DNA of 64,000 bases from Patescibacteria group bacterium. Its GTDB lineage: Bacteria > Patescibacteriota > Patescibacteriia > JAQUQO01. The stretch's first letter is position 1, and each line of letters starts with the position of its first letter. The notes under the pieces were generated by a model that was not told the origin of the DNA, did no database searches, and saw only the letters and a list, made by a program, of their open reading frames with translations. Location: contig JAQUQO010000001.1 in the NCBI GenBank assembly GCA_028716045.1, positions 64,942-128,941 of the forward strand, written 5' to 3'. The translations under genes and the position numbers were made by a program. Positions 25,907 to 51,767 of the stretch are shown piece after piece.

Positions 25907-25944
25907 AAATATAACATACAATTTATTATTTAATTTTAATTCTT

Positions 25945-26649: not shown

Positions 26650-26685
26650 TAAAATGTTTAAACTTTAGGCAGTGAGGCAAGTTTT

Positions 26686-34710: not shown

Positions 34711-35655
34711 ATGTCCAGAGTTTTAGTTACCGGCGGAGCGGGATTTGTCGGTTCTCATCTCGTTGATGCGTTGATTAAAAAAGATTTTAAAGTTGTAGCG
34801 GTTGATGATTTATCAACCGGCAAAAAATCCAATCTTAACCCCCGCGCTAAATTTTATAAATTAGATATCTCCGGCCCGAAGCTGGAGAATGTTTTTAAAA
34901 AAGAAAAACCAGATTACGTTTTTCACTACGCCGCCCAGATGGACGTGAGAAAATCGGTGGCCGACCCTTTATTTGACGCGCGCGTCAATATCTTGGGCGG
35001 GCTGAATGTTATTGCTAACGCGCAAAAATATAAAATCAAAAAAATAATTTTTGCTTCCTCCGGAGGGGCGGTATATGGAGAATCCTCACTCTTGCCAACG
35101 CCGGAGAGCGCCCCCACCAACCCCGTGTGCCCTTACGGTGTCAGCAAACTCGCTGCCGAAAAATACCTGTGTTATTTTTGGAAGCAATTTGGTATTCCTT
35201 ACGTCGCGTTGCGTTTCGCCAATATCTACGGGCCTCGCCAACGGTCAGACGGCGAGGCAGGAGTGGTGGCTATTTTCATCAGTAAGATTTTGCAGGGCGA
35301 ACAGCCAATTATTAACGGCGACGGACGGCAGACGAGGGACTATGTTTATATTGATGACGTGGTTAAGGCCAGTTTGGTGGCTTTAAAAAAATCAGCCGCT
35401 GGTTCTTATAACATCGGTACTGGGCGGGAGACGGATGTAAACAAAATTTTTAAACTCATTGCGAAAAATTTCGCGTATCCGGTAAAAGTAATCCGCGGCC
35501 CCGCTAAACCGGGCGAGCAGAGGAGGAGTGTTCTTGATGCCCGAAAAATAAAAAAAGAATTGGGCTGGTCGCCGCGAATTTCCATTGAAGAGGGGATTAA
35601 AAAAACAGCAGAGTGGATAAAAAAATTTAAAATTAAAAATGGAAAATTACAATGA
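34711..35655 (+). CDS. NAD-dependent epimerase/dehydratase (GalE-like)
   Basis: The VLVTGGAGFVGSHL Rossmann motif, a YxxxK catalytic pair and a 314-aa length. Substrate unknown. Confidence 0.8.
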   Translation: MSRVLVTGGAGFVGSHLVDALIKKDFKVVAVDDLSTGKKSNLNPRAKFYKLDISGPKLENVFKKEKPDYVFHYAAQMDVRKSVADPLFDARVNILGGLNVIANAQKYKIKKIIFASSGGAVYGESSLLPTPESAPTNPVCPYGVSKLAAEKYLCYFWKQFGIPYVALRFANIYGPRQRSDGEAGVVAIFISKILQGEQPIINGDGRQTRDYVYIDDVVKASLVALKKSAAGSYNIGTGRETDVNKIFKLIAKNFAYPVKVIRGPAKPGEQRRSVLDARKIKKELGWSPRISIEEGIKKTAEWIKKFKIKNGKLQ

Positions 35656-36004
35656 AAAATTAAAAATTGACATCAAAAAGAGGGCCTATATTTTTAGTTT
35701 AGAAATATTGCGATTTTTGCGGGGTTTAGATAGGAAAGATTGGATACTTGAGGTAATGACTAAACAACTGCTCCGTTGCGCTACAAGCATTGGTGCCAAT
35801 ATTATTGAGGCGCAGGCCGCTAGTTCAAGGAAAGATTTTATTAATTTTCTCACCGTCGCCCTAAAATCAGCTAATGAAACAAAATATTGGCTCGGCTTAC
35901 TGCGCGATGGTCAAAAATTAGACATCGACAAACTTTTAAAGGAAGTAGATGAACTTTCTAAGATACTTGCTGCTATTATTATGAGTGCAAAAGGTAAAAG
36001 ATAA
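35639..36004 (+). CDS. Four-helix-bundle protein (rRNA intervening-sequence protein family, TIGR02436-like)
   Basis: The 121-aa helical product has a family-typical pattern (AYIFSLEILRFLRGL...ETKYWLGLLRD). Confidence 0.7.
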   Translation: MENYNEKLKIDIKKRAYIFSLEILRFLRGLDRKDWILEVMTKQLLRCATSIGANIIEAQAASSRKDFINFLTVALKSANETKYWLGLLRDGQKLDIDKLLKEVDELSKILAAIIMSAKGKR

Positions 36005-36978: not shown

Positions 36979-37863
36979 TTGATTTTATATATGATGCCCG
37001 AAGATTACGAAAAAAATATTGATTTACCGGGCGATTTTAATACATACGGAGCAGAGGGGGGCGAAGGAGAGAAGGAAGAAAGGCGCGTCAAGCCCGCTTC
37101 AAAAGGAAAGGCAAATTTTATCTTTGCCGCGGTTTTTATTTTAGCCATAACCGGAGTAGCGCTCGGTTTTTCCAATTATTATAACAATATAAAGGGGCCG
37201 TTCGTTTTTAAGGGTTCTGAAAACGAGGAAGCCAGCGGTTCGGTGAATAAAGAAGCCCAGGATAGTTTGGATTTGCGCAATAAAGATACGGATAGCGACG
37301 GCTTAAATGATTATGATGAATTATATGTTTACAACACCTCCCCATATTTAGACGATTCGGACTCTGATAATTATAAAGACAAGGAAGAGATTGATAAGGG
37401 CTATGACCCAAACTGCCCGGCCGGGCGAGTTTGTATTTCGTCACCGTCTGAAAGTTCAACCGCCACGGAAGAAACAGCTACTAATTTAACAGCGGCGGAA
37501 GAAGAAATTTTAAATCAAGGGCAAAAACTTCTTTCCGGGTCTTTATCCCTTGATGAATTAAGAGCGCTTCTTAAGGAAATGGGAATGAGCGCGGCGCAGG
37601 TTGATAGTTTAAGTGACGAAGATTTAAAAAAACTTTACGATAAGACCTTGCAGGAAGTGCAAAAGCAGGTTGTGGCCGGGGAAAGTTCCTCGGGCACAGC
37701 AGAAACGCAGAATGGCGAGAGCACCAAACTCCCAGCGTCAGATTCCATCACTCCGGAGCAGATTAGGCAGCTCTTAATCGCCGGCGGGATGAAAGAAAGC
37801 GACCTTGAGGGAATAAGTGACGAGGAGCTAATTAAACTTTATAAGGAAGCGACGGAAGAATAA
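36979..37863 (+). CDS. TM protein with TSP3-like acidic repeats and C-terminal tandem helical repeat
   Basis: A TM helix, DTDSDGLNDYDE / DDSDSDNYKDKEE repeats, and two copies of about 38 aa of (E)LRxLLxxxGMxxxxxxxxSDE(E/D)LxKLYxxxxEE (res 188-226 and 257-294). It is the fourth member of the 25.2-27.7 kb family. Confidence 0.6.
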   Translation: MILYMMPEDYEKNIDLPGDFNTYGAEGGEGEKEERRVKPASKGKANFIFAAVFILAITGVALGFSNYYNNIKGPFVFKGSENEEASGSVNKEAQDSLDLRNKDTDSDGLNDYDELYVYNTSPYLDDSDSDNYKDKEEIDKGYDPNCPAGRVCISSPSESSTATEETATNLTAAEEEILNQGQKLLSGSLSLDELRALLKEMGMSAAQVDSLSDEDLKKLYDKTLQEVQKQVVAGESSSGTAETQNGESTKLPASDSITPEQIRQLLIAGGMKESDLEGISDEELIKLYKEATEE

Positions 37864-37934
37864 AAATTTAAAAGTCAATCCTTCGACAGGCTCAGGATTG
37901 ACCCTGAGCACAGCCGAATGGGTCAAAATCTAAA

Positions 37935-40900
37935 ATGCAAAATTTCAATTCAAAATTTAAAATTCCGGCGTTAGTTTTGGCCTGTTTTGTTATTTTTAAT
38001 TTTGTGTTTGGGGCAGGGGTCGTTAAGGCGCAATTACCGGTAGTTGATGTAGGATTACAGGGCTGGGAGGCTTATAAAGCCGCGCAAGCCGTTCGTAAAG
38101 AGGGGGAATCAAAAATCGAAGCCGTTTTGGCCACGGCCGCCAAGGTTTCTATTAAAAACACTTTAAAATATTTCAGTCGCAAATTGGCGATGGACACCGC
38201 TACTTATTTAGCGAATAAAGCGGCCGGTCGGGAGAGTTTACTATTTGAAGAGGGGTTTGGCAATTATTTATTAAATACCACTGACGCCGCCGCCGGAGTA
38301 TTTTTGCAGAATTTAAGCGAGCAAAATGGTTTTGCCAAGTTTAATTTTTGTCAGCCGGATTTTGTTATCAGTTTATCTATTTCCCTGGGTTTACAACAGT
38401 ATCAGTATCCGGAGCCGCCAATCTGTACCATTTCAGAATTAGTTAAAAACTGGAAAGATTTTGTTAACAACCCCAGATTCATGGATCACTTTGTCCCTTA
38501 TTTTAGTCCGTATGAAAATGATTTAGGTGTTTCTCTCGGCCTGCAAACTAAGATGATTGAACTCATTTCCGAGCAGGAAAAATTAGCGATTTTAGAGCGT
38601 CTGCCGGAAAAGCCCATGGTGGATTTAACTGACCCGGTCACTAAAAAAATAAAAACTCCGGCTTCTTGGGGATGGGAATCAGTTAAAAGTGCAACGGGAT
38701 TAGCAGGCTCAGAAGTAATGACCTGGACGCTAGATCCCATAGCTGATGCCATAGATGCTTTTGGCAATACTTTTTTAGCCCAGTATTTGCAGTTAACTTT
38801 TCAGGGTCTTTTTTCTCCCAGCGATACCACTGGCGGACTTTATAATCGTTATTCTGGTAGTACGGGCAGAACCACCAAATCCGCGCAGGAATACTACGCC
38901 TCATTTATTGGCACTCCAAAATTAAAGTCCTCCGGCGAAGTTGACATCTATAAACTTATCGCTTGCCCGGAGAATGTTTCGGATGCCGAACAACAGAATT
39001 GCGTGGTTGACCAGCAGTTCTTCCAGGCCATCAGAGAGGGGAAAACAGTCGGAGAGGCCGTTAACGAAGGCCTGCTCCATGGCGATTATTTCTTCGGATA
39101 TAAAGATCCGGTGGGGGGTACGCAGACCGAACAGCCGGACTTGGAAAACGTTTATTCAATTGATAATATGCGCAAACTGCGCTCCATGCGGATTTTGCCG
39201 GTGGGCTGGGAACTGGCGGCGGAGGTTATAAAAAATGAAACAAAAAAACCTACCACTCTCAAGGAGGTAATAGATGGATTTAATAAATACGGAGATGATG
39301 ACGTTTGCGGAACTAGAAATCAATGTTTTATTGAGGCTACCGGTGCTCTGATAGGCAAAACATGTATTAGTGATAGCGATTGTGCTTTAAATGGAGTTAA
39401 GTGCGATATAGGCGAATCGCCATTTTGTAATTTAGTTGATTCCAACTGGGTGCTTAAGGCGCCTAAGCAACGTTGCGATGTTACGGCCTATGGCGCCACT
39501 ACGGTGTCGCAGAGTTCCGCCAGAGAAGAAATTTGCGTGGATACCAAGACCTGTTTGCGTGAAGACGAAAAGGGAAATTGTCTGGCCTGGGGTTATTGCG
39601 ACCGCGAGCGCAATATCTGGAGATTCGGCGGCACGGAATGCCCGGCTTATTATAATTCTTGTGAAGTCTTTACGGATACCGAGGGCGGTAGCGTGGCTTA
39701 TCTTGAAAACACCATTAACAAAGATATTTGCAACGCTTCCAACGCCGGTTGTTCGTGGTATTGCGATGTCGCCGATTCGCAAAGTTTATGGTCCTGCACA
39801 GTGAAAGACGCGGATTTGGGTTTAGCAAGCAATAAAAAATTATATTTCAATAAAGATGTTCAGAGTTGTGATAAATCTAGCGCCGGCTGTACGGAACTTA
39901 TCAGGCCGGCCGTCGGCACCGGCACCAATCTTTTGGTTAATGGAAGTTTTGAAAAATTCAACGGAGAAGTTGACGATGGCAAAAATGATCGAGTTCTGGA
40001 TTGGGAGGTCGTGGCCGGTGGTCCCTCGTCATTAAAAACAGAAATTATTTCAGAATCTTATCCGGGCGCAGGGTCATATTCTCTAAGGGTTACTAAAATT
40101 GGCTCTACGGGCTATCCATTGTCGCAGTCCGTGGGATATTTACGCGCCGGAGTTCCTTACATGATGAGCGGATGGTTTAAGGCCGATAGGGGAGTAAAAA
40201 TAAAAATTTTTGCCATATATAATGAATCCGGAAACTCCGGTCAAATAACGGAAGTGGAATCAGCGGAAGGTAATGGGGGGTGGCAGAACATTGAATCCGC
40301 GGAACCGTTTATTCTAACCAGAAACGGCCAAGTGGATTTTCGAGTAGCCTTTGTCAGCGGCGGCAGCTTTATTATAGACGCTCTTAAATTAGAAGAAGCG
40401 ACCAAAATTACGAATTATTCCGAATACGGTGCTGATAATCTGGTTTACATAAAGAAAGCTCCGGATTATTTAAAATGTGATACCAATCCGGATAATCCTC
40501 TTTGCGCTTCTTACGCTCCTTTTTGCCAGGCCGAGGAAGTCGGTTGTGAACTCTTTACTCCAACCAACGGCGACCCGGGCGTTCCCGGCATTGTTACTTC
40601 CAATGACCTTTGTCCGGCAAGCTGTATTGGTTATGATATGTTTTTGGAGCATCCCACGCAGTTTGACGTCGGAGCTTTTGACGGTTCAGAAGATTATTTT
40701 ATTCCTTCCACCGCCCGAGGATGTACCGCCGTGGGTTGTGAGGAATTTACCAATTTAGACACGGAAAAAATTGAATATTTTTCCGAACTGCGGCTTTGTG
40801 AAAAGCCGAACGGGGCTCTACCCGTATTTTATACTTGGGAGGGTTCAGACCAAACTGGCTATCAGCTCAAAGTTTGGAATTTAAAAGCGGCGTCGAGCGG

Positions 40901-43900
40901 TGCTCCGCTTTGCGTCGGGCGCAGTATTAATGATACTGATATTGATTGCGATTGCGAAGACGAATATGGGGAAAACCCCGATTGCCGGCAATTTTATGAC
41001 GTGAATGGAGGGGTGCATTACAGATATTATTCTAAAACCATCACGATTGCCGATGATTGCCATCCTTACAGGCAGACGCAGAGAATTTCCCAATTAGAAT
41101 GCGAGGCGTTAGGAGCTAATCTCACTGATTCGCCGATTTATTTTGATGCCAATACCCAGACCTGCGTTTATCATGGTTATCCGGCGGAGAGTGCGATATG
41201 TCCCGCCGCGGAAGACGGTTGTCGCGAATACAAAGGTAATTACGCTGAAAATATCGCAGTTATTTTCAATGATAATTTTGAAGCGGGGATACCGGCCGGC
41301 TGGGGAGCCAAGGGTGCGCGTTCGGTTTTAAGCGCTGATTCTCTGTCTGTGGGAGGACATTCTTTATTGGTATCCAACACTTCAACTGATGGTTTATATA
41401 AGGATATAACCGGGCAAATCGTAACCAATAAAGTTTATTCCTTATCTTTCTGGGCGAAAGGTAAGGGAACGGTGGAGGTAGGATTTTCCGATGAGATGGG
41501 CAGATTAGGTTCCAGTTCGTTTTTATTCGGCACGGCGGATTTGAAACCAGAATGGAAATTGTATTCTTTGGGGACAGTCATTTTCCCGGCACCGGAAGAG
41601 GGCAATAAATTTTATCTGATGTTTAAAGGTTTGCAATCCGGCGCGGATTATTATTTTGACAATATTATTTTGAAAGAAGTGCAGGAGAGATTACTCTTGG
41701 TGCAGGATTCGTGGAAAACTCCGGCGGAGTGCGATGCGGATAATAGTGGCAATTATTTACCGCGAGCGCAAGTCGGTTGTCAGGGTTATTTTGACCGTAA
41801 TGGCGTGGCTTATAATTTAAAATCTTTTGACAAACTTTGCCGCGAGTCAGCCGTGGGCTGCCATGAATTTATTGATACTAAAAATTCCGAGGCCGGATAC
41901 GCGGAGGTAAAAAACGCCGTTTGCTGGCGGCCGGAGAGTAATTTGTCTGGCGATTATCTTTGTCAGCGCGAAGGTAACAATGTCTGCACTATAGAAACTG
42001 GCAAGGTTTATTGCCGTTATGATATTGCCGACCCGGCTGACCCTTATGAAGGGCTGAAAACGAGTGATCGTTGCACCCTCGGGTCGGTCTGCACGCAATT
42101 AAACGGTTGTTCTTGTAAAAAAGGCGGTTCAAATGCAATAAGCTGTTGGGCAAACAAAGGTGAGACCACTTGTCTGCCTAAGGGCGACGCGGCCACAGTG
42201 GTGGTGCCGCGGGATAACTTCGTGTATCTGGCGGAAAATGAAAAATACTCTTGCAGTAAACAAGCCAGGGGCTGTAAAGAACTAGGCCAGCCGACAATTG
42301 ATATTGAGAATAAAATCGCCGGCTGGGAGTCCACTTATCTTAAAGATTTACCCGATAGTTACAATGCGACGTTGTGCGAGCCGCGGGCGGTGAATTGTAA
42401 AGAATACAAAGCGAAAGATAAATTATTATATTTTAAGGACCCGGGAGCTAAGCTGTGTGATTACCGCATAGATGAAAATGTCACAAACGAAAATGTCGCA
42501 GGGAAAATTCAAACCGGCTGGTTTAAGAAGGACACGCAAGAACCGTGTTTTGGCAATTATCAGTTGTTGAAAAATGCCGATTCCAAATATGATGGTTGGG
42601 CCGGTGTCTGCGCGGAAGAATACAGTGGCTGCGAAGAGTTTATTGACCCGGTGGCTACTACCCCGAGTCATCCGGAAGGCCAGCCGTATTATTATTTGGA
42701 TAATGACAAGCTGGACCGTTCTTCTTGCAACGGGCAAGTAAGCCTGCGAGATGGCTGTGTTCTCTTTAACGAAACCAGCAATCCTAATATCTACTGGAAT
42801 GCTCCGATGTCGTATAGAACCAGTGAGAAGAATAATAATAATCTTGTGAATCCGGTAAAATATTCAACGGATAATCGTTTTTGCGCGACGGCTAATCAAT
42901 CCGCTATTTTTGATGGTTTACCCTGTTCAAAAGATAGTGATTGTCAAAAACAACCGGGCACAACTTGCCAGATTATAGATTCATCAAATTCTTCAATTTG
43001 TCGCAGGAAATCCGATAAAACAGAAGGATATATTTGGTTTAAAAATAGCCAGTGTAATTCTGACAGCGATTGCCGTTCAGTCACCGGCGGATTTATTGAA
43101 GACAAATGTTTGAATTTTGAGCAAGATATAAAAAATCGTTCCGCCGCCAATACTATCCTTAAAGTTACTCGCGACCGCGAGTGCGCCGAGTGGATTGACT
43201 GCACTATTGGAGAGCGCATTAAGGACCCGACGCGCAATAACCAATACCGCAATGTTTGTTACGACATTGGCAGATGTATAGATTTGAAAGAAAACAACGG
43301 CGAGTGCGCCGAGTGGGCGCAGACAGAATGCGATACCGCAGCCGATTGTCTTGAGGGTCAAGAATGTAGTAATAGCCGATGCGCTTATCCCGAATTAACT
43401 AAAGAGGTTTATCAGCAGAGGAGCTTAACCTGGTCTTTAGCCAAGGATTTTTCCGGCTATGCCATCCCGGGTATGAAATCCGCCGAAGGTTTAGCCGAGG
43501 TTAAAAGTTCGGTAAAATATTGTGTGGCTGGCGGGATAAAGAAAATTGGCGAGCCGTGCGATGATAATAATGATTGTGGTGGCGAATATGAAAATATGAG
43601 TGTTTCCGGACAATGCGAAAGTAAATATTATTTAGCAAATTATAATGACAAAATTTTAAATGAATCATGTGAAGGGCTGGAAACTTTGAATGCCAGTTAT
43701 CAACTAGTTGAAGGTGAGGACTTTGCCACAGCATGTGTTATAGATAAATCCTGCCGCTCCTATCCAGATTCATCTTCACCGTTTGATTATAAATTTAAAT
43801 CTACCGATTCCGACGCCGCGCGCTGCGCCGAGAGTTCCATTACTAAAGCCGGATTAACTTTTAATACTTGTGATTGCAGTTATCAGGTAGCCAATGCTTC

Positions 43901-45842
43901 TGGTAAAAAGTTGTATTATCCGACCGGTTTTCAAATACCGGCTTATGTTTGTTCTGTTAGCGGTCAGGCTTGTGACCCAAGAAGTGAAGAAATTATTTGT
44001 CCCGTTGGCGAAGAATGCGTAAAAGTAAAAGACAATTCTCTCAAGCTTGGCTGGAAGGGGTATTGTCTTGAATATGACAATAAAAAGCCCGGGCGTTGTT
44101 TGACTTGGTATCCGATTGATGTGGTTGAAGGGGAGGCGAATCTATTCAGCTACAATCCCGCCGCTACTTACACCCATAGCGGACCGGAGTATTATTGTGA
44201 ATCGTCAGATTTTAGTTTTGCGTGGGGAGATAAAGCTACGCCTTCCGAAGCTACTGTCGGATTACCGAAAGAGTGTGAAAATAAAGATGATATTAATGAT
44301 AGATTATTTGATTGGCCAGAGTATGCATATGACACCACTAGGATTTACGACGAGCTTTGGGGGATTGATAGCGGTTCAATTTCGGGGATGTGGGTAGAAT
44401 TACCAAGACATTTATTAGGTTTATATATAGTAGATGCTGAGGCGGGCGGTGGGTCTTCTACTAAAATTTTATATAAAGGAGACCAACCCAAGTTATACAA
44501 AGATCAAATCGCCAGTATAAATATTTTTATTTCTTCTTCAAGTCACACCAGCACAGGAGCTATGGATTTTAAAGAGGAAGATTTTGATGTCTGCGGAGAA
44601 TATCTAGAGTGTTTAAATGGGACTGATTATGATGACAAGAAAGGGTTTGAAGCTAATAACGGCGATTGTATGGATTTAGCTAGCGAGACAGATTTTGGAA
44701 CATACGGGATAGCCGTCGCTGTTAAAAATGTATTATCGGACGAAAATTCATGGACATATGACATCAGTAATGATCAGGGTTCAGTAAGAATCTACGCTGA
44801 TTTTGCTAATGATAGTTCGTTAAGCAGTTTAACCGTAGAAGCTTATGATAAAGATGGGGTAGGAGCTTTCATAATAGCTGGATATGAGATTAAGTTTCGT
44901 GGTGGGTGCTCAGTTCTTGGGAGGGTGGCAGAGAATGGTAAAAATTATGCTTTTACTAATAACGTAAATGCCAAAGTTAAACTCTCTGATTTACTAGATT
45001 TTAAACAAGATCTTGATATTGACTATCTTTCTAACTGGCAGCCTTGGGGTGGGACGAACGCCTATACTAAGCCGATACATAATAGTGAACATCCTCCGCT
45101 TAACACTTATGTTATTAAAAAAACAGACACTAATTGCGAGTATTGTGGTGCTTTATACAACGATGTATCGATGAAAGAATCACGGCTTTCAAGAGATGGT
45201 GAGGGTATTAATTATGAAAGTTCCTTATTTTGGTTATTTGCGCGGATTTTTGAGCAGTGGAAATTTTCCGATGACAATTTTACTTATAATAAGCCAGTTT
45301 TAAAAGAGTTAGACACGGTTTTACCGATCGGTCAACCAAAGATTACCGGAGTAAAGGTTAATGATGTGAGTGGCAGTCAATCAAAAGTTGAAGTGAATGA
45401 GTTCGGCAAGGTTAGTTTGTCTTTCTATGTATTTGACCCAACCGGCAGAGGTCAGTTGCCGATCCGCGATATTAAAGTTGACTGGGGTGATGAAAGTATT
45501 CAAGAAGTAACCAGTAGTTTTGGTAATTACGCTGACCCTGATGAAGTGGATATATTGGAAAATAAATTTGTTTGCGATTCTTCCAATTGGGGACGTTTTC
45601 CAGAACGTTGTACTAATGAACCGTTGGAATTTTTCCATATTTACCGCGCCAAAGGCATAGTTGATGAGGGAAAACCGTTATGTGATGAAGACCCTGATGA
45701 TGTTAATTGCCGTCTTTGCGAAATTAAAATATCAGCTAAAGATAATATGGCCGACTTGGCGGAATTTCAAAACGATGTCACTCCTCGAGAAACAAAAGTG
45801 ACAGCGGAAACCATGGTCCGGGTTTGTAAAAAATCCAAATAG
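37935..45842 (+). CDS. Giant (2635 aa) secreted cysteine-rich protein with two CBM4/9-like jelly-roll modules
   Basis: A signal peptide and a 7.9-kb uninterrupted ORF. Two segments of about 150 aa (LLVNGSFEKFNGE...IIDALKLEEA at about 39.9-40.4 kb; FEAGIPAGWGA...YFDNIILKEV at about 41.3-41.7 kb) are typical of carbohydrate-binding jelly rolls. Dozens of Cys pairs occur throughout. It lies immediately upstream of the T4SS-like module. Confidence 0.8.
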   Translation: MQNFNSKFKIPALVLACFVIFNFVFGAGVVKAQLPVVDVGLQGWEAYKAAQAVRKEGESKIEAVLATAAKVSIKNTLKYFSRKLAMDTATYLANKAAGRESLLFEEGFGNYLLNTTDAAAGVFLQNLSEQNGFAKFNFCQPDFVISLSISLGLQQYQYPEPPICTISELVKNWKDFVNNPRFMDHFVPYFSPYENDLGVSLGLQTKMIELISEQEKLAILERLPEKPMVDLTDPVTKKIKTPASWGWESVKSATGLAGSEVMTWTLDPIADAIDAFGNTFLAQYLQLTFQGLFSPSDTTGGLYNRYSGSTGRTTKSAQEYYASFIGTPKLKSSGEVDIYKLIACPENVSDAEQQNCVVDQQFFQAIREGKTVGEAVNEGLLHGDYFFGYKDPVGGTQTEQPDLENVYSIDNMRKLRSMRILPVGWELAAEVIKNETKKPTTLKEVIDGFNKYGDDDVCGTRNQCFIEATGALIGKTCISDSDCALNGVKCDIGESPFCNLVDSNWVLKAPKQRCDVTAYGATTVSQSSAREEICVDTKTCLREDEKGNCLAWGYCDRERNIWRFGGTECPAYYNSCEVFTDTEGGSVAYLENTINKDICNASNAGCSWYCDVADSQSLWSCTVKDADLGLASNKKLYFNKDVQSCDKSSAGCTELIRPAVGTGTNLLVNGSFEKFNGEVDDGKNDRVLDWEVVAGGPSSLKTEIISESYPGAGSYSLRVTKIGSTGYPLSQSVGYLRAGVPYMMSGWFKADRGVKIKIFAIYNESGNSGQITEVESAEGNGGWQNIESAEPFILTRNGQVDFRVAFVSGGSFIIDALKLEEATKITNYSEYGADNLVYIKKAPDYLKCDTNPDNPLCASYAPFCQAEEVGCELFTPTNGDPGVPGIVTSNDLCPASCIGYDMFLEHPTQFDVGAFDGSEDYFIPSTARGCTAVGCEEFTNLDTEKIEYFSELRLCEKPNGALPVFYTWEGSDQTGYQLKVWNLKAASSGAPLCVGRSINDTDIDCDCEDEYGENPDCRQFYDVNGGVHYRYYSKTITIADDCHPYRQTQRISQLECEALGANLTDSPIYFDANTQTCVYHGYPAESAICPAAEDGCREYKGNYAENIAVIFNDNFEAGIPAGWGAKGARSVLSADSLSVGGHSLLVSNTSTDGLYKDITGQIVTNKVYSLSFWAKGKGTVEVGFSDEMGRLGSSSFLFGTADLKPEWKLYSLGTVIFPAPEEGNKFYLMFKGLQSGADYYFDNIILKEVQERLLLVQDSWKTPAECDADNSGNYLPRAQVGCQGYFDRNGVAYNLKSFDKLCRESAVGCHEFIDTKNSEAGYAEVKNAVCWRPESNLSGDYLCQREGNNVCTIETGKVYCRYDIADPADPYEGLKTSDRCTLGSVCTQLNGCSCKKGGSNAISCWANKGETTCLPKGDAATVVVPRDNFVYLAENEKYSCSKQARGCKELGQPTIDIENKIAGWESTYLKDLPDSYNATLCEPRAVNCKEYKAKDKLLYFKDPGAKLCDYRIDENVTNENVAGKIQTGWFKKDTQEPCFGNYQLLKNADSKYDGWAGVCAEEYSGCEEFIDPVATTPSHPEGQPYYYLDNDKLDRSSCNGQVSLRDGCVLFNETSNPNIYWNAPMSYRTSEKNNNNLVNPVKYSTDNRFCATANQSAIFDGLPCSKDSDCQKQPGTTCQIIDSSNSSICRRKSDKTEGYIWFKNSQCNSDSDCRSVTGGFIEDKCLNFEQDIKNRSAANTILKVTRDRECAEWIDCTIGERIKDPTRNNQYRNVCYDIGRCIDLKENNGECAEWAQTECDTAADCLEGQECSNSRCAYPELTKEVYQQRSLTWSLAKDFSGYAIPGMKSAEGLAEVKSSVKYCVAGGIKKIGEPCDDNNDCGGEYENMSVSGQCESKYYLANYNDKILNESCEGLETLNASYQLVEGEDFATACVIDKSCRSYPDSSSPFDYKFKSTDSDAARCAESSITKAGLTFNTCDCSYQVANASGKKLYYPTGFQIPAYVCSVSGQACDPRSEEIICPVGEECVKVKDNSLKLGWKGYCLEYDNKKPGRCLTWYPIDVVEGEANLFSYNPAATYTHSGPEYYCESSDFSFAWGDKATPSEATVGLPKECENKDDINDRLFDWPEYAYDTTRIYDELWGIDSGSISGMWVELPRHLLGLYIVDAEAGGGSSTKILYKGDQPKLYKDQIASINIFISSSSHTSTGAMDFKEEDFDVCGEYLECLNGTDYDDKKGFEANNGDCMDLASETDFGTYGIAVAVKNVLSDENSWTYDISNDQGSVRIYADFANDSSLSSLTVEAYDKDGVGAFIIAGYEIKFRGGCSVLGRVAENGKNYAFTNNVNAKVKLSDLLDFKQDLDIDYLSNWQPWGGTNAYTKPIHNSEHPPLNTYVIKKTDTNCEYCGALYNDVSMKESRLSRDGEGINYESSLFWLFARIFEQWKFSDDNFTYNKPVLKELDTVLPIGQPKITGVKVNDVSGSQSKVEVNEFGKVSLSFYVFDPTGRGQLPIRDIKVDWGDESIQEVTSSFGNYADPDEVDILENKFVCDSSNWGRFPERCTNEPLEFFHIYRAKGIVDEGKPLCDEDPDDVNCRLCEIKISAKDNMADLAEFQNDVTPRETKVTAETMVRVCKKSK

Positions 45843-45910: not shown

Positions 45911-48661
45911 ATGTTTAAACAACATAAAAAACTCATTCTATCCTTAATCTTGTCCGCGACGATAATTATCGCGGGCGGTTTTCTTATCGGAAATTTTGTT
46001 CACGCGGAAGACCCAGCGGCCACCATAAAAGACAGCTCCACTGCCACGATTCTTCGACTCACCCTCGGTTACATAGTGGAACTTTTTATTTTTCTTGGCG
46101 GTCAGCTTTTAGTTTTACTTCTGAAAGTTTTAAAACTTTTGGCCGGTTATAATGATTTTATTCGCGCCGAACCGGTCCAGTTGGGTTGGGTGGTTATCCG
46201 CGATTTAAGCAACATGTTTTTTATTCTCATCTTGCTGGTTATCGCTTTTGCCACCATCCTGCGGGTGGAATCTTATCAATATAAGAAACTTCTGCCTCGC
46301 CTTCTCATCATGGCGATACTCATAAATTTTTCCAAAACCATCTGCGGATTGTTTATAGATTTTGGGCAGGTGATAATGCTCACTTTTGTCAATGGGTTCG
46401 CGGCGGCTACGGATGTCAATCTTACTGTTGGCTTAGGTATTGATAAAATATTATCCCTGCCGAAAGATTCCTCGGCCACGGTTAATGCTTTAACTATAGT
46501 GGCGGCGTATCTCTTAGCTTTGATTTATATTGTAGTCACTGTTATAACCGTCGCCATTATTTGCTTTACGCTGGCCTATCGCATCGTGATGCTTTGGATT
46601 TTAGTGGTGCTTTCCCCTCTGACTTTTTTATTAAGCGCTTTTCCGCAGGGGCAGAAATTCGCTTCGCAATGGTGGGATGAATTTTCCAAGACCATTGTCA
46701 TCGGTCCGATTTTAGCTTTCTTTTTATGGCTATCTTTGGCGGCCATGCAACCAGCGGCGGATAATCCCAGAAACTCCAGTTTAACCAGGACATTAACCAC
46801 CGAGCAAGAAGAGGATGTGGGAGAAACGGCAACTGGGGACACCGTTTCGCGAGCCATTAGCCAAGCTGACGACTTGAGTGTTTTTGCCACCTTTATTGTG
46901 GGTATCGCTTTAATGTGGGGTGGTATTTATATGTCGCAGAGAATCGGAGGTGAAGTTGGTAGTTTTGCCTCTGGTAAGGCCAGGCAATGGTCGGTGGGTG
47001 CGGCTAGAGGAGCAGCAGGCGCGGCTAAATGGGCCGGCGGTAAATTATGGGGTGGGACGAAAGTTGGAGCAGGCGCACTTGATAGATTGCAAGGGGGCGT
47101 AACGGGCATACAATTCTCTAAAATTCCCGAAAGAATTAAAGCCGGGTTTGCTACCAAAAAAGAAATGGAGGAAAAAGAGATTGCCAAGAAGGCCTTGGCA
47201 ATTCAGCGCCGGGGAGCCGGAGCTGGTTGGTTGCCGGCGTATATGGCGTTTGCCACTCCGGACAAAGCTATTATGGAATATGGTGGTGTGAAGGGAAGAT
47301 TAAAGGCGGCTAATCAAACTCGCCGCATTTTACCGGGGTTGGAGAGTTATAGACAGAAAAAACAGGAAGCGGATATTAAGAGAGCTGATTATAAAAAATT
47401 AGAGGGCGAAAATAAAACGTTGACTGATAAAATAGAAAAACAAGCTGATTTAGAAAAAGAACAGAAGATTTCAGCTGAGAATTTTGGTAGGTTCGGTACT
47501 TCCACCGTGATGTTAGACAAAGTAGGAGACAGAGATATTATTGAAAAATTAGAAGAAGAAAGGGAGCGATTAAGGATACAAGCCGGTGTTCCCGGCGCAA
47601 GCGGAAAAGATAAAAAAGAATTTGAGTATTTAGACGCGATTTTAAGCACTCCCGAAGTTAAACTTTCCGCTTCGGAGTTTAATAAATATGTCGGCAATAA
47701 AAATCCTCTCGCTTTTGAAAATGAAAGGAGTAGGGTGAAAAAAGAAAAAGACAAAGCAGAGGAAAGGTTAAACAGATTTATCGCTAATAATCCCGGATTC
47801 ACAAGAGGAGAAGCAGAAAATACAATAAAAACTAACCAAAACGTAATAGGAAATATTAAAGAAGATGTGAGAAGGATAGAATCGGAATATCTGCCTAATA
47901 TTCCCAAGCATTTAGTGTTTGATGTGGAGGCCAAAAAGGCCGAAGCCGAAGCGCTTAAAAATATTCCGTCCACCGCTGGCTTTCCGGATTTAATGAGAGC
48001 TCTGAAAAAGGCTTTGGCGGATGGTGATGCCTCTACCGCCAACGTTATTTCTAAAAAATTGAGTGAAAATGGGCAGATGGGCGATATGTTGAAAGAAATG
48101 GGTAAAACAGAAGATATAGCTGGTTTTAAGGAGTTTGTTGATAAGGAGCTTTTAAAGGTTAATAAGGACGATAAAAATGCTGCTTATAGTGTTGGCAGTG
48201 AAATGAGCTTGTATGCGGAAAAATCCGGTGACGCCGTTTATGGCGGCATATTTAGAGCAGATCCATCAACCGGTAAGGTTGATGCCGTCAGTGATAATGA
48301 GGCGGTTGATATTATAGCCAAAAGAATATCCAGTAAAGACGCTTCCCAAGCCGTTAAAGTTAAAATATCTTCTTATGTTAAAACGGATATTTTAGGGAAA
48401 AAGAGTTTAACTCCTTTGGGAGCGACAGTGGTTTCTACTTTTGCTCCCGATTTTGAAAAAATGATTTCTAAAGGAACTTTTCCTCCGGCTTTACAAAAAG
48501 CCTTGAGAGATGTTAAGGGCAGTATTGAAAAAATTGTTGGAGTTGGCACATTAACTAAAGAATTGGCCGATAAAATAACCGCGGTGGGTTATGCCACCGG
48601 AGAAGAAGAAATACCGCCTAAAGCTGCGGATTTAATCGCAAAATTGACGGGAGGCCCGTAA
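45911..48661 (+). CDS. Polytopic membrane protein, VirB6/TrbL-like, with about 600-aa charged coiled-coil C-terminal extension
   Basis: A signal or first TM helix, then about 6 TM helices within res 40-290. The remainder is Lys/Glu-rich and predicted helical. Its position at the head of the PrgI-VirB4 block fits VirB6-like, but the topology is only eyeballed. Confidence 0.5.
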   Translation: MFKQHKKLILSLILSATIIIAGGFLIGNFVHAEDPAATIKDSSTATILRLTLGYIVELFIFLGGQLLVLLLKVLKLLAGYNDFIRAEPVQLGWVVIRDLSNMFFILILLVIAFATILRVESYQYKKLLPRLLIMAILINFSKTICGLFIDFGQVIMLTFVNGFAAATDVNLTVGLGIDKILSLPKDSSATVNALTIVAAYLLALIYIVVTVITVAIICFTLAYRIVMLWILVVLSPLTFLLSAFPQGQKFASQWWDEFSKTIVIGPILAFFLWLSLAAMQPAADNPRNSSLTRTLTTEQEEDVGETATGDTVSRAISQADDLSVFATFIVGIALMWGGIYMSQRIGGEVGSFASGKARQWSVGAARGAAGAAKWAGGKLWGGTKVGAGALDRLQGGVTGIQFSKIPERIKAGFATKKEMEEKEIAKKALAIQRRGAGAGWLPAYMAFATPDKAIMEYGGVKGRLKAANQTRRILPGLESYRQKKQEADIKRADYKKLEGENKTLTDKIEKQADLEKEQKISAENFGRFGTSTVMLDKVGDRDIIEKLEEERERLRIQAGVPGASGKDKKEFEYLDAILSTPEVKLSASEFNKYVGNKNPLAFENERSRVKKEKDKAEERLNRFIANNPGFTRGEAENTIKTNQNVIGNIKEDVRRIESEYLPNIPKHLVFDVEAKKAEAEALKNIPSTAGFPDLMRALKKALADGDASTANVISKKLSENGQMGDMLKEMGKTEDIAGFKEFVDKELLKVNKDDKNAAYSVGSEMSLYAEKSGDAVYGGIFRADPSTGKVDAVSDNEAVDIIAKRISSKDASQAVKVKISSYVKTDILGKKSLTPLGATVVSTFAPDFEKMISKGTFPPALQKALRDVKGSIEKIVGVGTLTKELADKITAVGYATGEEEIPPKAADLIAKLTGGP

Positions 48662-48665
48662 ATTT

Positions 48666-49901
48666 ATGTGGGATAAAATAAACAACCAAAAAGTTTTAGA
48701 TGATTTTAAAAGGAGCTTGGATAATGATATTTTGGAATACGATTTGAATGACGCCAAAATTCTTTATACTTCTCTCCGTGATATTTTAGTTAAAGAAAAT
48801 ATTAATGAAACGGGAGGGGCGATGGCCGAGGAATATTATAAATTAATGCGGCAGGCCGGGTTTGTGTCCCTTGCTCTTTTGGAATTTGATGATGCTAAAC
48901 AATTGTTTGCCGAAGGTCTGCCGACTATGTTAGAGTTGAGCGAATTTGACGTTTTGAATGAATTAAAGAAATTTTTTATCTACCGTTTTCCGATACTGGC
49001 CGACCGATTGCTCGCCAAAAACGACTTGCAAAAAATTATAGAGGAGAATAACAAAAGAATAGCGAACGCCGCCGGAGCGGCTATCGGAGAAAAACAACTT
49101 TTTATTGTCAGCGATTGGATTAAAAATTATTTGGCTTATATTAATCAGGCCGAACCGGAAATTTTAAAATTGCAGGAATATCTGGCGCGGTCGGAGGCGA
49201 TGCAAAAAACCAGCGAAGAAGAAAAAAATAAGATAGGCCTTTTGTTGAAGATTTATGATTATTTGCGAATGGCGCAGTTCAAACCGTTTTTGTTAGATGA
49301 GGAATTAACAATAGTTGAGGACGGAGAAACATATACTGTCACCGAGGGGCGGGCGGAAAAGGTGGACCCCAATATAAAAAAATTGATGGCGGATATCAGG
49401 GAAATTTTGGAAAAGGCGCGCGCTCCGGAAGAAGTGGCGACGGCTTACAGCGCGGTCGGTTGGCAAAGGATTTCTAAACCACAAATTTTAAAGAAATATA
49501 AAACTCTGGAAGCGGCGGCAGATAATCTATTTAAAAAAATCGCCGGTAATTTATTGGGGAGCGCGGACAAAGACGAAGCGCTATCCATTTTATATTATTT
49601 AGCAGAGGAAAATAAATTGATGACGTTTTTAAAATCACCGGCCAATTTTAGCGGGCTTAAGGCGTTATTTGCCAAATCAAAAAAATTAACCGACGCCCAA
49701 AAAAACGCCAACATTCCGGAGCTCACGATTTTTTTACAGGCCTTTTTGCGTTATATTTTTGAAGAGTTGCTGGAGATGAGTGTTAATGAAGCGGCTCGCG
49801 AAGGCCAGCGCTTGGCCAACGCACTTAAAAAATCCGGTGGAGCCGATTATTTTGATATTTCCTATTTTGATTTAAATAAAGGGCAATTTGTCTGGAAATA
49901 A
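48666..49901 (+). CDS. Hypothetical soluble protein in T4SS-like module
   Basis: The 411-aa ORF has no TM helix. It is tightly packed, 4 nt after the VirB6-like stop. Confidence 0.5.
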   Translation: MWDKINNQKVLDDFKRSLDNDILEYDLNDAKILYTSLRDILVKENINETGGAMAEEYYKLMRQAGFVSLALLEFDDAKQLFAEGLPTMLELSEFDVLNELKKFFIYRFPILADRLLAKNDLQKIIEENNKRIANAAGAAIGEKQLFIVSDWIKNYLAYINQAEPEILKLQEYLARSEAMQKTSEEEKNKIGLLLKIYDYLRMAQFKPFLLDEELTIVEDGETYTVTEGRAEKVDPNIKKLMADIREILEKARAPEEVATAYSAVGWQRISKPQILKKYKTLEAAADNLFKKIAGNLLGSADKDEALSILYYLAEENKLMTFLKSPANFSGLKALFAKSKKLTDAQKNANIPELTIFLQAFLRYIFEELLEMSVNEAAREGQRLANALKKSGGADYFDISYFDLNKGQFVWK

Positions 49902-51321
49902 TTCTATGGCCGTTGGCAATAAAAAAAATAATAATCATTCGGCAGTTAATACGTTTTCTGATGATGAGGTTTTAGTAAAAGGGGGTGACGGAAAATTTTA
50001 TATTTTAAGAGGAGCAGAATTAGCGCCCTACGAAGCGGCGAGAGGAGAGAGGCCGGTTTTGGATTACAAAAGAATCGCCGAAGAAATAATAGATAAGAGT
50101 GGGAGTGTGGCACTCACGCCGGTTAGGCGGGACCAGCTTTTTAATGTTATCGTTTCCGGCCTAAAGGGCGTGCGCGACAGTTTAGAAATAAAAAATATCC
50201 TTGTAAAACCAATTGGCGTCGGCGGATTAGAATTAAATGAAGACAAGACAAAATTAATTTTGGATTTAATAAAACTCGCCTTGGAAGATAAATTAGGAGC
50301 TGGAACGTCCCGCGGAGAAAAACAGGAAGGGAAAATCGCCTCGGTGGTCTCCGTTACTCCGGCCAGCGATATAAAAAGTTTAGAGAAGCTGGTTAATGAG
50401 GTGGTGGGGATTATCAAAAAGGATTATCCCAAAGAGCTAGAGATGAGATTAAGAGGAATAATATTGACATATCTTAAAGATATTAGAGATAAAAGAGAAA
50501 CGCGTGAAACACTAGAGAGGCAAATAGCCAAGGGCGGAATGTCGTTTGAAAAGGGGCGGGCGGAAAAGCTGGTTAATTTTATTGACGATTTAGAAAAACG
50601 TCGTCAAGCGGGGGAGATGGGGCTGAAAAAAGAATTTCCATCACCTAAAAAAGAATTCCTGGCTGTTCCCGTGAAAGAAGCGTTGGTCGGTGAGTCAAGC
50701 AACAAGGCGGATGTTTCTCAATTTGTGGCTAAAGAAAGGGAGGCCTTTAAGGAGTCAGTTATTTTGAAAGATAAATATTTAGCGCCGCCCCCGCTGGCCA
50801 TTGTTAAGAAGGAAGAAGGCGCTGAGCTTCCCTCAAGGGCATTGGAAAAAGAACTGTCAAAGCCGGGGTTACAAAAATTTGTTCCACCGCTTCGCCCCAA
50901 AATAACGCCCCAGCCGCCGCCAGCCTCCGCACCTTTAAAGCAGACCTTGGTTGTAGAAAGAAAACCGCAGATTCAGGATATAAAATATAAACCGCGGCTG
51001 GTCGGTCCCATAGAAGAACTTCGAACTTTGACTCTCCGCGATTTTCGCAAGCTTTCAGAAGACCCGAAAATCGCCACAGAGAAAATTCAAAATAAGATTA
51101 ACCTTTTAGAAGAAGAATCCTTTGCCAAAAGGATGGAAGGAGCGAGGGCTTGGCAGAAAAGTCCTCTCAATCAGGAATATTTGAAGGTGGGGCAGAAGAG
51201 CTTGCTGGAGGGCAAATCCGTTGAACAAATAATCGCGGAAAATTTAAGTAAATCAAAAGAAAGCTTAAATAAAGCGGAATTTAATGCTATAATGGGATTG
51301 AATAAGAGAATCAGATTATAA
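49888..51321 (+). CDS. Hypothetical protein in T4SS-like module (Pro-rich central segment)
   Basis: The 477-aa ORF overlaps the upstream gene by 14 nt. The central PPLRPKITPQPPPASAPL motif suggests an envelope-spanning or peptidoglycan-interacting role. Confidence 0.5.
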   Translation: MSGNNSMAVGNKKNNNHSAVNTFSDDEVLVKGGDGKFYILRGAELAPYEAARGERPVLDYKRIAEEIIDKSGSVALTPVRRDQLFNVIVSGLKGVRDSLEIKNILVKPIGVGGLELNEDKTKLILDLIKLALEDKLGAGTSRGEKQEGKIASVVSVTPASDIKSLEKLVNEVVGIIKKDYPKELEMRLRGIILTYLKDIRDKRETRETLERQIAKGGMSFEKGRAEKLVNFIDDLEKRRQAGEMGLKKEFPSPKKEFLAVPVKEALVGESSNKADVSQFVAKEREAFKESVILKDKYLAPPPLAIVKKEEGAELPSRALEKELSKPGLQKFVPPLRPKITPQPPPASAPLKQTLVVERKPQIQDIKYKPRLVGPIEELRTLTLRDFRKLSEDPKIATEKIQNKINLLEEESFAKRMEGARAWQKSPLNQEYLKVGQKSLLEGKSVEQIIAENLSKSKESLNKAEFNAIMGLNKRIRL

Positions 51322-51329
51322 TTTTTAAT

Positions 51330-51767
51330 TTGTCTATCATGCGCCAGTTTGTTGTTCCACAATTTATTGACGTTGAGGATAAAATAATCGGCCCGGTTAC
51401 CGTCAGACAGTTTATTATTATGCTGGTGGACGCGGGGTTGATATTTTTGTCGTATAAACTTTTTGATTTTGCCCTTTTCGTGATAGTTGGATTAATTTTG
51501 TTTGGTATTGGAGGAACGATAGCCTTCCTTAAAGTTAATGGCCAGCCGTTTCATTTTTTTATGTTGAACTTAATCCAAACCTACCGCCGGCCTTGGCTGA
51601 AGATTTGGAACAAGGAACTGGAAAATTGGGAAATAAAGGAAAAACTAAAAATAACGGAAGTGAAATTACCGGAAAAACCCAAAGTTAAACCGAAAATTTC
51701 CGCCTCGCGGCTGGCCGAGCTTAGCTTGATTGTCAATACTGGCGGCGTTTATGAAGGGCAAGATTAA
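51330..51767 (+). CDS. PrgI/VirB3-like small two-TM T4SS protein
   Basis: A 145-aa product with two adjacent TM helices (res about 28-80), then KVNGQPFHFFMLNLIQTYRRPWLKIW. It sits directly upstream of VirB4, matching the VirB3/PrgI position and topology. Confidence 0.55.
   Translation: MSIMRQFVVPQFIDVEDKIIGPVTVRQFIIMLVDAGLIFLSYKLFDFALFVIVGLILFGIGGTIAFLKVNGQPFHFFMLNLIQTYRRPWLKIWNKELENWEIKEKLKITEVKLPEKPKVKPKISASRLAELSLIVNTGGVYEGQD

Follow-up and report, generated by a model that had tools for sequence, protein, structure and literature searches.

A giant cysteine-rich protein with carbohydrate-binding modules is a candidate host-contact adhesin of a chromosomal type IV secretion-like locus in Patescibacteria

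A stretch of 64,000 nucleotides (nt) from the genome of a Patescibacteria group bacterium (contig JAQUQO010000001.1 of assembly GCA_028716045.1; hereafter the window, whose features lie on the + strand unless stated otherwise) carries at 37935-45842 (+) a gene for a giant cysteine-rich protein, directly upstream of a gene cluster resembling a type IV secretion system (T4SS). Most likely, the giant protein is a fixed component of the ABY1-type chromosomal T4SS-like locus of Falkow-, Uhr-, Magasanik-, Kerfeld- and Komeilibacteria and their relatives. With moderate confidence we further read it as the surface adhesin through which this T4SS would contact the host, a functional analogue of VirB5 or PrgB; this estimate excludes true homology to VirB5, which is weighed separately below. 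The T4SSs of Patescibacteria are MPF_FATA-like, chromosomal, devoid of a relaxase, and essential in Saccharibacteria (PMC12102498). According to the survey that describes them, "no adhesins such as PrgB were detected" in Patescibacteria and VirB5 occurs in one rare genome only, together with a Gram-negative-type (MPF_T) system; the giant protein is not mentioned there (Quinonero-Coronel et al. 2025; PMC12102498). The giant protein may well fill this adhesin slot, which is held by VirB5 in diderm T4SSs and by PrgB in enterococcal ones. The gene order of the window, with the candidate adhesin followed by VirB6, VirB3 and VirB4, parallels the virB5-virB6 arrangement of Agrobacterium (pEHA105).

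The link between the giant gene and the T4SS-like module, drawn earlier from the sequence of the window, is conserved in dozens of independent loci and emerges in both search directions. In the first direction, loci were selected by the giant protein, five by look-up of the exact protein and 37 by scanning the genomes of GTDB species for the peptide RILPVGWEL, and their neighbours were scored by local hidden Markov models (HMMs). The typical order is a membrane protein with TSP3 motifs, the giant protein, often a small protein with two transmembrane segments, and then the VirB6-like, PrgI/VirB3, TrsD and VirB4 proteins. Same-strand membership of the giant gene in the VirB4, PrgI/VirB3, TrsD and VirB6-like cluster is found in the window, in loci L003 and L005, and in about 40 further loci. 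A homologue of the TSP3 partner stands directly 5' of the giant gene in all 38 loci with upstream DNA, and the gap between the two genes has a median of 11 nt (20 nt or less in 33 of 50 loci, with a 4-nt overlap in five). Downstream, a VirB6-like gene is present in 20 of the 26 related loci that have a complete giant gene and downstream DNA; the six loci without it had at most 3.5 kb of downstream sequence. The next T4SS gene begins within 150 nt of the giant gene in 18 of 45 loci and within 1 kb in 35 of 45. Some of these loci (L007, L008, L010, L033-L035, L037 and L039-L042) come from GTDB species-representative metagenome-assembled genomes titled "uncultured Gammaproteobacteria bacterium", titles that are probably placeholders or mislabels.

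In the opposite direction, metagenome contigs were selected by their VirB6-like gene, with search patterns derived from giant-linked VirB6 genes; this yielded 80 loci at 37-50% VirB6 identity, 27 of them with at least 9.6 kb of upstream sequence. A giant-family gene lies upstream on the same strand in 26 of these 27 loci. Eighteen are complete giant genes with the N-terminal domain (N-domain) of the family, while eight are cut by the locus edge, and the ORFs (open reading frames) of the latter match the middle or C-terminal part of the giant family (BLAST E 1e-16 to 0). The remaining locus, L107, has other large ORFs.

The giant gene itself is a single ATG-to-stop ORF of 2,635 residues without interruption. 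Its product is acidic and rich in Gly, Ser, Asp and Asn, and a composition count gives 113 Cys (4.3% of residues). The large, secreted and Cys-rich nature proposed from the sequence-only reading is thus borne out, with a cysteine count lower than the more than 150 given there. That reading had also called the protein a "second giant", implying kinship with giant protein 1 (14872-25203); BLASTP shows no homology between the two (best E 0.24), and we rejected a paralogous relationship. The identical NCBI entry is named [quoted passage not shown]. A transmembrane scan finds one hydrophobic segment in the protein, at residues 6-34, with a Lys-rich n-region before it, a hydrophobic stretch of 21 residues, and VKA/Q after it (the slash marks the predicted cleavage site). 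These features make a cleaved Sec signal peptide likely (37935-38033, residues 1-33, predicted cleavage VKA/QLPVVD), and of 167 homologues with a complete N-terminus, 120 have an AxA-type cleavage site at this position. Because the protein has a signal peptide of its own, a role as a substrate of the T4SS-like machine, raised earlier beside that of an adhesin, appears unlikely.

A first homologue search returned 61 relatives of 2.2-3.7 thousand residues, all "hypothetical" or without a name, from Falkow-, Magasanik-, Kerfeld- and Parcubacteria or unclassified Patescibacteria. BLAST coverage extends over residues 1-1300 in all 61, over 1300-2100 in most, and over 2100-2635 in two to four. Aligning 55 homologues over their full length with MAFFT shows that 57 of the 113 Cys are each retained by 80% or more of the sequences, despite an overall identity of about 30%. 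This pattern points to a conserved disulfide scaffold. We then searched a profile of the N-domain (alignment A1, the N-terminal 455 residues) exhaustively against 1.84 billion representative proteins and obtained 3,058 clusters (50% identity) at E<=1e-3, 1,176 of them at E<=1e-30. Among the best 150 matches the domain always occupies residues ~1-500, and most of the proteins have 2.5-3.9 thousand residues; the shorter ones look like contig-end fragments. Thus, the N-terminal domain that had been taken for a unique element of about 350 residues reaches to about residue 455 and is shared by thousands of proteins: given its N-terminal position in the best matches, it is the defining feature of a very large family that comprises about 3,000 clusters.

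Two segments of the giant protein had been proposed to resemble carbohydrate-binding modules (CBMs), and family HMMs agree. Pfam CBM_4_9 (PF02018) matches two stretches (E 1.5e-15, 58.2 bits against a cut-off of 25.9), the best of them at residues 1109-1211, and is also detected in many homologues; the Pfam scan of the giant protein gave nothing else of note. An AlphaFold2 (AF2) model of residues 456-1300, built on an alignment of 27 rows (mean predicted local distance difference test, pLDDT, 69.8), is nearly all beta. Searched with Foldseek against the PDB, it retrieves as the top match the tandem CBM22 of a Paenibacillus xylanase (4xup, E 6e-11), to which both CBMs of the giant protein are aligned. 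A single CBM22-1 (4xuo/4xup_E) superposes on the model over 157 columns with a template modelling (TM) score of 0.71-0.72 and a root-mean-square deviation of 3.6 Å. Structures of CBM4-2, CBM16 and CBM61 are also among the matches, the whole set with CBM22-1 spanning TM scores of 0.64-0.72 and deviations of 3.6-4.9 Å. A phmmer search of each CBM segment against PDB sequences found no match. The first jelly roll falls at 39927-40400 (about residues 665-822, with approximate boundaries), where it comprises the second CBM_4_9 stretch and a predicted beta-sandwich at model residues 245-366; the second falls at 41247-41690 (about residues 1105-1252) and combines the best CBM_4_9 stretch with the AF2 and Foldseek evidence. 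Since CBM_4_9 matches twice above its cut-off and the model matches CBM folds, we regard the two CBM-like jelly rolls as confirmed by sequence and by predicted fold, and carbohydrate binding as their probable function.

Modules of the CBM_4_9/CBM22 type are typically found on glycoside hydrolases, and the best fold matches here are xylanase CBMs. The giant protein could in principle be a secreted hydrolase of polysaccharide or cell wall, VirB1-like or predatory, in which the CBMs target an unrecognised catalytic domain such as the N-domain; invariant charged residues (Glu426, Arg416, Arg419) do sit in a strongly conserved motif of that domain, and VirB1 homologues are rare near virB4 in most Patescibacteria classes (PMC12102498). 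Nevertheless, Pfam, NCBIfam and PDB profile searches revealed no catalytic family, a protein with an SLT domain beside a T4SS_pilin domain is already encoded in the window at 62906-63991, and most of the 2,635 residues form a Cys-rich scaffold that fits a structural or adhesive role. We therefore hold a hydrolase to be very improbable.

Whether the N-domain is a VirB5 deserves closer scrutiny. In scans of family members with Pfam and the 18,950 models of NCBIfam, the only recurrent matches other than CBMs are to T4SS minor-pilin families, and all are sub-threshold. NCBIfam VirB5 (NF010434) matches four of 28 family members (E 0.004-0.05) and TrbJ (NF010448) two of three members checked (P0156 at E 0.012), both below cut-off (225-346 bits, with 13-17 bits for the best of these scores); neither model matches the window protein. 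Pfam DUF4141 matches the member P0042 (E 1.8e-5, 24.4 bits against a cut-off of 30). The VirB5, TrbJ and DUF4141 matches are all confined to the signal peptide and about 30 residues after it, and they arise because the start of the mature N-terminus is shared. Thus, the VirB5 of Agrobacterium (that of pEHA105, found by tblastn) reads ARAQ/FVVSDPATE, members of the giant family read AYAQ/WVVTDPITG, AQ/LPVFDPAQFAQN and AQ/WAVLDPANLGQN, and the window protein reads KAQ/LPVVDVG. In its strict form, the VirB5-like N-terminal motif occurs in 16 of 167 family members, and the window protein has only QLPVVD.

Comparisons of the whole N-domain carry the resemblance no further. Aligned by hhalign with Agrobacterium VirB5, the domain gives 20 columns at 12.5% probability; only the signal peptide and N-terminal motif are aligned, and for that reason we do not claim VirB5 homology. 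The AF2 model of the domain (pLDDT 57.5) has two long helices after the signal peptide, H40-96 and H107-130. Foldseek found no match for it (best E 0.79), from a model too poor to count either way, and the N-domain profile found no match among PDB sequences better than E 0.059, those being unrelated. A derivation of the domain from the VirB2-like T4SS_pilin family was also considered and rejected, the two PF18895 proteins of the window giving hhalign probabilities of 1.9% and 0.1%. Two precedents from other systems are pertinent. Genes of the DUF4141 family stand beside traJ and traG in Bacteroides conjugative transposons (PMC10434189). Furthermore, a 2026 preprint describes TraH of the F plasmid as a genuine VirB5 that is undetectable by sequence (3% identity) and by fold (TM score 0.14), and whose identity came to light solely from the interface predicted between it and the VirB6 pentamer. 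Given the TraH precedent, the negative comparisons of the N-domain leave VirB5 homology possible.

Under such homology the giant protein would be a hyper-divergent VirB5 whose N-domain assembles as a pentamer on the VirB6-like platform and travels outward with a VirB2-like pilus, bearing a fused stalk of about 2,200 residues. Five subunits with disulfide-locked CBM stalks at the pilus tip might then form a five-armed glycan-binding grapple on host cells, a picture that we consider doubtful; equally tentative is the proposal that the N-domain nucleates the VirB2-like pilus, with the TSP3 and small two-transmembrane proteins as further assembly parts. The restriction of all non-CBM matches to minor-pilin families, always at the signal peptide and mature N-terminus, speaks for this scheme, as do the start motif common to Agrobacterium VirB5 and some family members, the company kept by DUF4141 genes, the virB5-like position directly upstream of the VirB6-like gene, the long helices of the low-confidence model, and the presence of T4SS_pilin-domain proteins in the window. 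Yet the matches fall far short of the family cut-offs and take in the signal peptide, the hhalign alignment is short and of low probability, Foldseek finds nothing with a model that is itself uninformative, the strict motif is infrequent in the family and reduced in the window protein, and the giant protein is ten times the size of any known VirB5. On balance, we judge true VirB5 homology to be improbable, and we file the giant protein as a candidate for the VirB5/PrgB adhesin slot, assigned to neither family.

The best reading is still that of a glycan-binding adhesin presented by the machine, as first suggested from the sequence: the features of a secreted, Cys-rich protein with CBMs and the linkage to the T4SS all agree with it. 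A plausible course of events can be outlined. The giant protein would be exported by the Sec pathway, its signal peptide cleaved, and its disulfides formed outside the cell. The helical N-domain (residues 34-455) would retain it on the cell surface, at or close to the VirB6-like platform, and the apparently translationally coupled TSP3 membrane protein, presumably binding Ca2+, could help in this retention. The Cys-rich scaffold (about residues 500-2100) would form a rigid stalk that projects the two modules of CBM4/9/22 type and a poorly conserved distal segment (residues 2100-2300) toward the host cell. There, the CBMs would bind envelope polysaccharide of the host and thereby place the T4SS-like machine ready for the transfer of its cargo, of whatever kind. 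Each of these steps, from export and cleavage through disulfide formation, N-domain anchoring and the binding of host glycans to cooperation with the T4SS, is a conditional one that we infer from the features described above.

Several observations weigh against such a role. No anchoring device was found in the giant protein: a regular-expression scan gave no LPXTG-like motif near the C-terminus, the transmembrane scan gave no C-terminal transmembrane or hydrophobic segment, and the N-domain model is poor. CBMs usually accompany glycoside hydrolases, so that an enzymatic role of an unrecognised domain is possible. The VirB6 label of the next gene is weak. This gene (45911-48661) encodes a polytopic membrane protein of 916 residues with about eight transmembrane segments in residues 1-342 and then a long hydrophilic tail. 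Its Pfam TrbL/VirB6 match is sub-threshold (E 0.0038-0.0064, 17 bits against a cut-off of 25.9), and neither a profile search against the PDB nor hhalign against Agrobacterium VirB6 was significant; the label given to it in the sequence-only reading is supported by the weak TrbL match, the membrane topology and the conserved position. In addition, 6-7.5 kb of toxin-antitoxin or other genes separate the giant and VirB6-like genes in several relatives, and htrA, prfB, the epimerase gene and ksgA are also syntenic in these genomes. Because the whole neighbourhood is syntenic, conserved order alone is no proof of shared function, and collinearity contributes to it. The insertions bear as well on the earlier suggestion that the giant gene is co-transcribed with the T4SS-like module. 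In the window this is plausible, since the 68-nt gap between the giant gene and the next start at 45911 contains no terminator-like hairpin on the + strand and no promoter-like site in a sequence scan; the relatives with inserted genes indicate that co-transcription is not obligatory and can be dispensed with.

In an alternative scenario, the giant protein is a generic Sec-secreted adhesin, on the surface or associated with an S-layer, that acts independently of the T4SS and owes its position to the collinearity of ABY1 genomes. The conserved order of the htrA, prfB, epimerase and ksgA genes, the tolerance of insertions of up to 7.5 kb before the VirB6-like gene, and the signal peptide of the giant protein are all compatible with this scenario, and Patescibacteria commonly carry large adhesion-domain proteins at the surface, regardless of T4SSs (PMC11809585, PMC13059738). 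However, collinearity is confronted with a giant gene upstream, and on the same strand, of 26 of 27 VirB6-like genes at VirB6 identities of only 37-50%, and with gaps that are often of a few to tens of nucleotides, or overlaps. Moreover, other large proteins of Patescibacteria reportedly evolve fast and have no full-length homologues (PMC11809585), whereas the giant family is conserved end to end, with its Cys pattern. A T4SS-independent adhesin thus seems rather unlikely, the most credible of the alternatives that we considered, and we retain the T4SS adhesin as the preferred reading.

Immediately before the giant gene, the TSP3 partner gene (36979-37863) encodes a single-pass membrane protein of 294 residues (transmembrane segment at residues 43-67), whose true start may be an ATG a few codons downstream of the listed TTG. 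Its ectodomain begins with tandem TSP3-type motifs, calcium-binding by motif; two strict DxDxDGxxDxxE motifs, at residues 103 and 126, are joined by a DPNCPxGxxC pair and by two C-terminal helical SDEELxKLY repeats. Pfam TSP3_bac does not reach E<=1 on the window copy and scores weakly on the homologue of L003. The family comprises proteins of roughly 250 residues, with at least one TSP3 motif in all 38 homologues and two in 24 of them, and its consensus is kDTDgDGLsDyDEln.Y.TSPYL.DsDSDG..D..Ei..G.DPNCP.G..C. The TSP3-repeat protein noticed ahead of the giant gene in the window is thus an invariant neighbour, apparently translationally coupled to it. In the 71-nt spacer between the two genes of the window, an 8-bp inverted repeat (GTCAATCC...GGATTGAC, at about 37868-37900) has a 13-nt loop and no T-tail. 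Three proteins of 229, 234 and 328 residues follow giant protein 1 at 25217-27672 (+). The first two carry Pfam TSP3_bac (E 5e-21 and 2e-18), and the HMM of the partner protein matches all three (5.7e-18, 6.4e-12 and 2.2e-5), so TSP3 membrane proteins accompany both giant genes. Directly upstream of giant protein 1, the gene at 13090-14844 (+) encodes 584 residues in which a T4SS_pilin domain at the N-terminus (PF18895, E 1.3e-9) is fused to a Big_5 domain, which is immunoglobulin (Ig)-like; a surface module linked to a pilin may therefore include giant protein 1 as well.

The small protein encoded between the giant and VirB6-like genes occurs in 53 of 66 VirB6-selected loci and in 10 genome loci, for example at L003 18653-19360, L008 17775-18371, L012 18653-19165 and L044 7323-7907. 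It has a charged leader, two hydrophobic helices and the motif SFGLTLIYINxHVF...FFCKLGEEW, and it is absent from the window, where the genes on either side of its usual place are those separated by 68 nt. With regard to an identity as a VirB2-type pilin, there is no Pfam match and hhalign shows no relation to T4SS_pilin.

Downstream of the VirB6-like gene, the window contains two soluble proteins without a Pfam match, X1 (48666-49901, 411 residues) and X2 (49888-51321, 477 residues). They are weak paralogues (the X1 HMM matches X2 at 3.6e-14) and are kept between the VirB6-like gene and PrgI in most loci, with a single gene matching both HMMs in some. The PrgI/VirB3-like protein (51330-51767) has 145 residues, two transmembrane segments and a Pfam PrgI match (E 7.2e-7, 30.1 bits against 27). 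It is followed by a TrsD/TraC-like protein of 224 residues (51808-52482), identified by a local HMM, whose homologues in L003 and L005 carry the TraC-like PF26593; TrsD is reported as the commonest VirB4-linked component in Patescibacteria (PMC12102498). The VirB4-like ATPase (52505-54361, 618 residues) matches Pfam P-loop_TraG (E 2.9e-27), AAA_10 and CagE_TrbE_VirB (E 9e-4). A membrane protein of 210 residues, single-pass by transmembrane scan (54342-54974), and a ComFC-like protein with Pfam DZR_2 and Pribosyltran domains (54984-55730) come next, a pair also found 3' of VirB4 in L005. RecG lies at 58090-60228 (+) and RadA at 61559-62899 (-), so that ComFC, RecG and RadA flank the T4SS-like cluster of the window as they do in the reported ABY1 chromosomal T4SS loci, which include comF, recG and radA (PMC12102498). 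Adjoining RadA, the gene at 62906-63991 (-) encodes 361 residues with a T4SS_pilin domain (PF18895, E 6.6e-11) and an SLT lytic transglycosylase domain, the architecture of a pilin/VirB1-like fusion. Upstream of the giant locus the genes are ordinary chromosomal ones: ftsA, ftsZ, nrdR, htrA, a class-1 release factor (PCRF/RF-1), an NAD-dependent epimerase and ksgA. Alone between the epimerase gene and ksgA, 35639-36004 (+) encodes a 23S rRNA-intervening-sequence protein (PF05635, E 9.5e-22). Further upstream, 4414-6183 (+) encodes 589 residues with MshEN, the N-terminal part of a T2SSE ATPase and two FHA domains, an unusual architecture related to the ATPases of type IV pili or type II secretion systems (T2SS).

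The remaining layout of the giant protein can be followed along the alignments. The family-defining N-domain (38034-39299, residues 34-455, alignment A1) is predicted to be mostly alpha-helical; it retains the Cys pairs C139/C164 and C344/C356 and the near-invariant motif KLRxxRILPVGWExAA at residues 414-429. Next comes Cys-rich module A (39300-39926, residues 456-664), whose first 45 or so residues are a lineage-specific insert: Cys 498-652 are kept in 80-100% of homologues and Cys 458-490 are not, and AF2 confidence is low over the whole module. The Cys-rich beta domain between the two CBMs (40401-41246, residues 823-1104) is covered by all 61 homologues, its Cys are 89-100% conserved, and it has the highest AF2 confidence (pLDDT 80-95 at model residues ~480-640). 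Beyond the second CBM, the long Cys-rich scaffold (41691-44234, residues 1253-2100) repeats the hairpin motif C-x(4-6)-G-C-x-E-[FLY]. Lineage-specific Cys-rich "DSDC" inserts occur at residues 451-500, 1351-1413, 1650-1700 and 1799-1816. The least conserved segment (44235-44834, residues 2101-2300) has an occupancy of 0.34-0.45 and an identity of 0.15-0.20. The C-terminal region (44835-45839, residues 2301-2635), with its last 330 residues again moderately conserved, contains a VDWGDES motif at about residue 2515, and a DWGDG consensus is kept across the family alignments. Pfam gave no match on either of these last two segments; the DWGD motif suggests that the C-terminal region is PKD-like.

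A large part of bacterial diversity belongs to the Patescibacteria, which live attached to other microorganisms. The chromosomal T4SS of these bacteria was essential for host-dependent growth in the one system tested (PMC12102498). Within this frame, the giant family is a concrete candidate for the host-recognition arm of the ABY1 T4SS and points to envelope glycans as the receptor. It should also lend itself well to testing whether divergent VirB5 proteins can be detected by their interfaces, and its weakly conserved distal segment could serve as a marker for host-range prediction from metagenomes. Part of the picture is already known: the sequence is public under a generic name, and large adhesin-like proteins are an established theme in Patescibacteria (PMC11809585, PMC13059738). 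What our analysis adds is the conserved giant family, its TSP3 partner and its T4SS linkage, of which the literature searched holds no description; together these suggest a candidate for an adhesin slot reported as empty.

Comparison with known systems places the giant protein more precisely. The minor pilins VirB5, TrbJ and TraC (pKM101) of diderm T4SSs are adhesins of the pilus tip and dock on VirB6 as a pentamer; the VirB5 fold is an elongated three-helix bundle with a globular appendage (TraC 1R8I, TrwJ). The giant protein resembles them in its probable Sec signal peptide, in the first 6-10 mature residues in part of its family, in a predicted helical N-terminal region, in the position of its gene directly upstream of a VirB6-like gene, and in its presumed contact with target cells. 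In contrast, it has 2,635 residues against about 220 in VirB5, no significant similarity to it beyond the N-terminal motif, and CBMs and a Cys-rich stalk, and it belongs to a monoderm. PrgB (Asc10, pCF10) is likewise a large Sec-exported protein of a monoderm T4SS, encoded upstream of VirB6 (PrgH), VirB3 (PrgI) and VirB4 (PrgJ), and it binds envelope polymers of the partner cell, as is predicted for the giant protein from its CBMs. Unlike PrgB, the giant protein lacks an LPXTG sortase signal, carries CBM_4_9 and Cys-rich modules, and is chromosomal with no relaxase context; neither Pfam nor NCBIfam matched the PrgB adhesin or Ig-like domains in it.

The CBM4/9/16/22 modules of glycoside hydrolases share with the giant protein the PF02018 sequence match and the predicted jelly-roll fold, whereas the giant protein has no detected catalytic domain and its modules are embedded in what appears to be a disulfide-rich surface-protein scaffold. 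The surrounding locus has the VirB6-like, PrgI/VirB3, TrsD, VirB4, T4SS_pilin and comF/recG/radA genes in common with the Patescibacteria chromosomal T4SS (PMC12102498), essential in Southlakia epibionticum; the published description does not list an adhesin or VirB5 for the Patescibacteria clade, nor the giant protein, its TSP3 partner and the small two-transmembrane protein. Finally, the FhaB-domain proteins of Patescibacterium danicum (PMC11809585) and the adhesin-domain proteins of Absconditicoccaceae (PMC13059738) are also very large, carry a signal peptide, presumably mediate host adhesion, and belong to episymbiotic ultra-small bacteria. Those proteins are reportedly without full-length homologues and shuffle their domains, whereas the giant family is collinear, comprises thousands of clusters and keeps a fixed set of partners.

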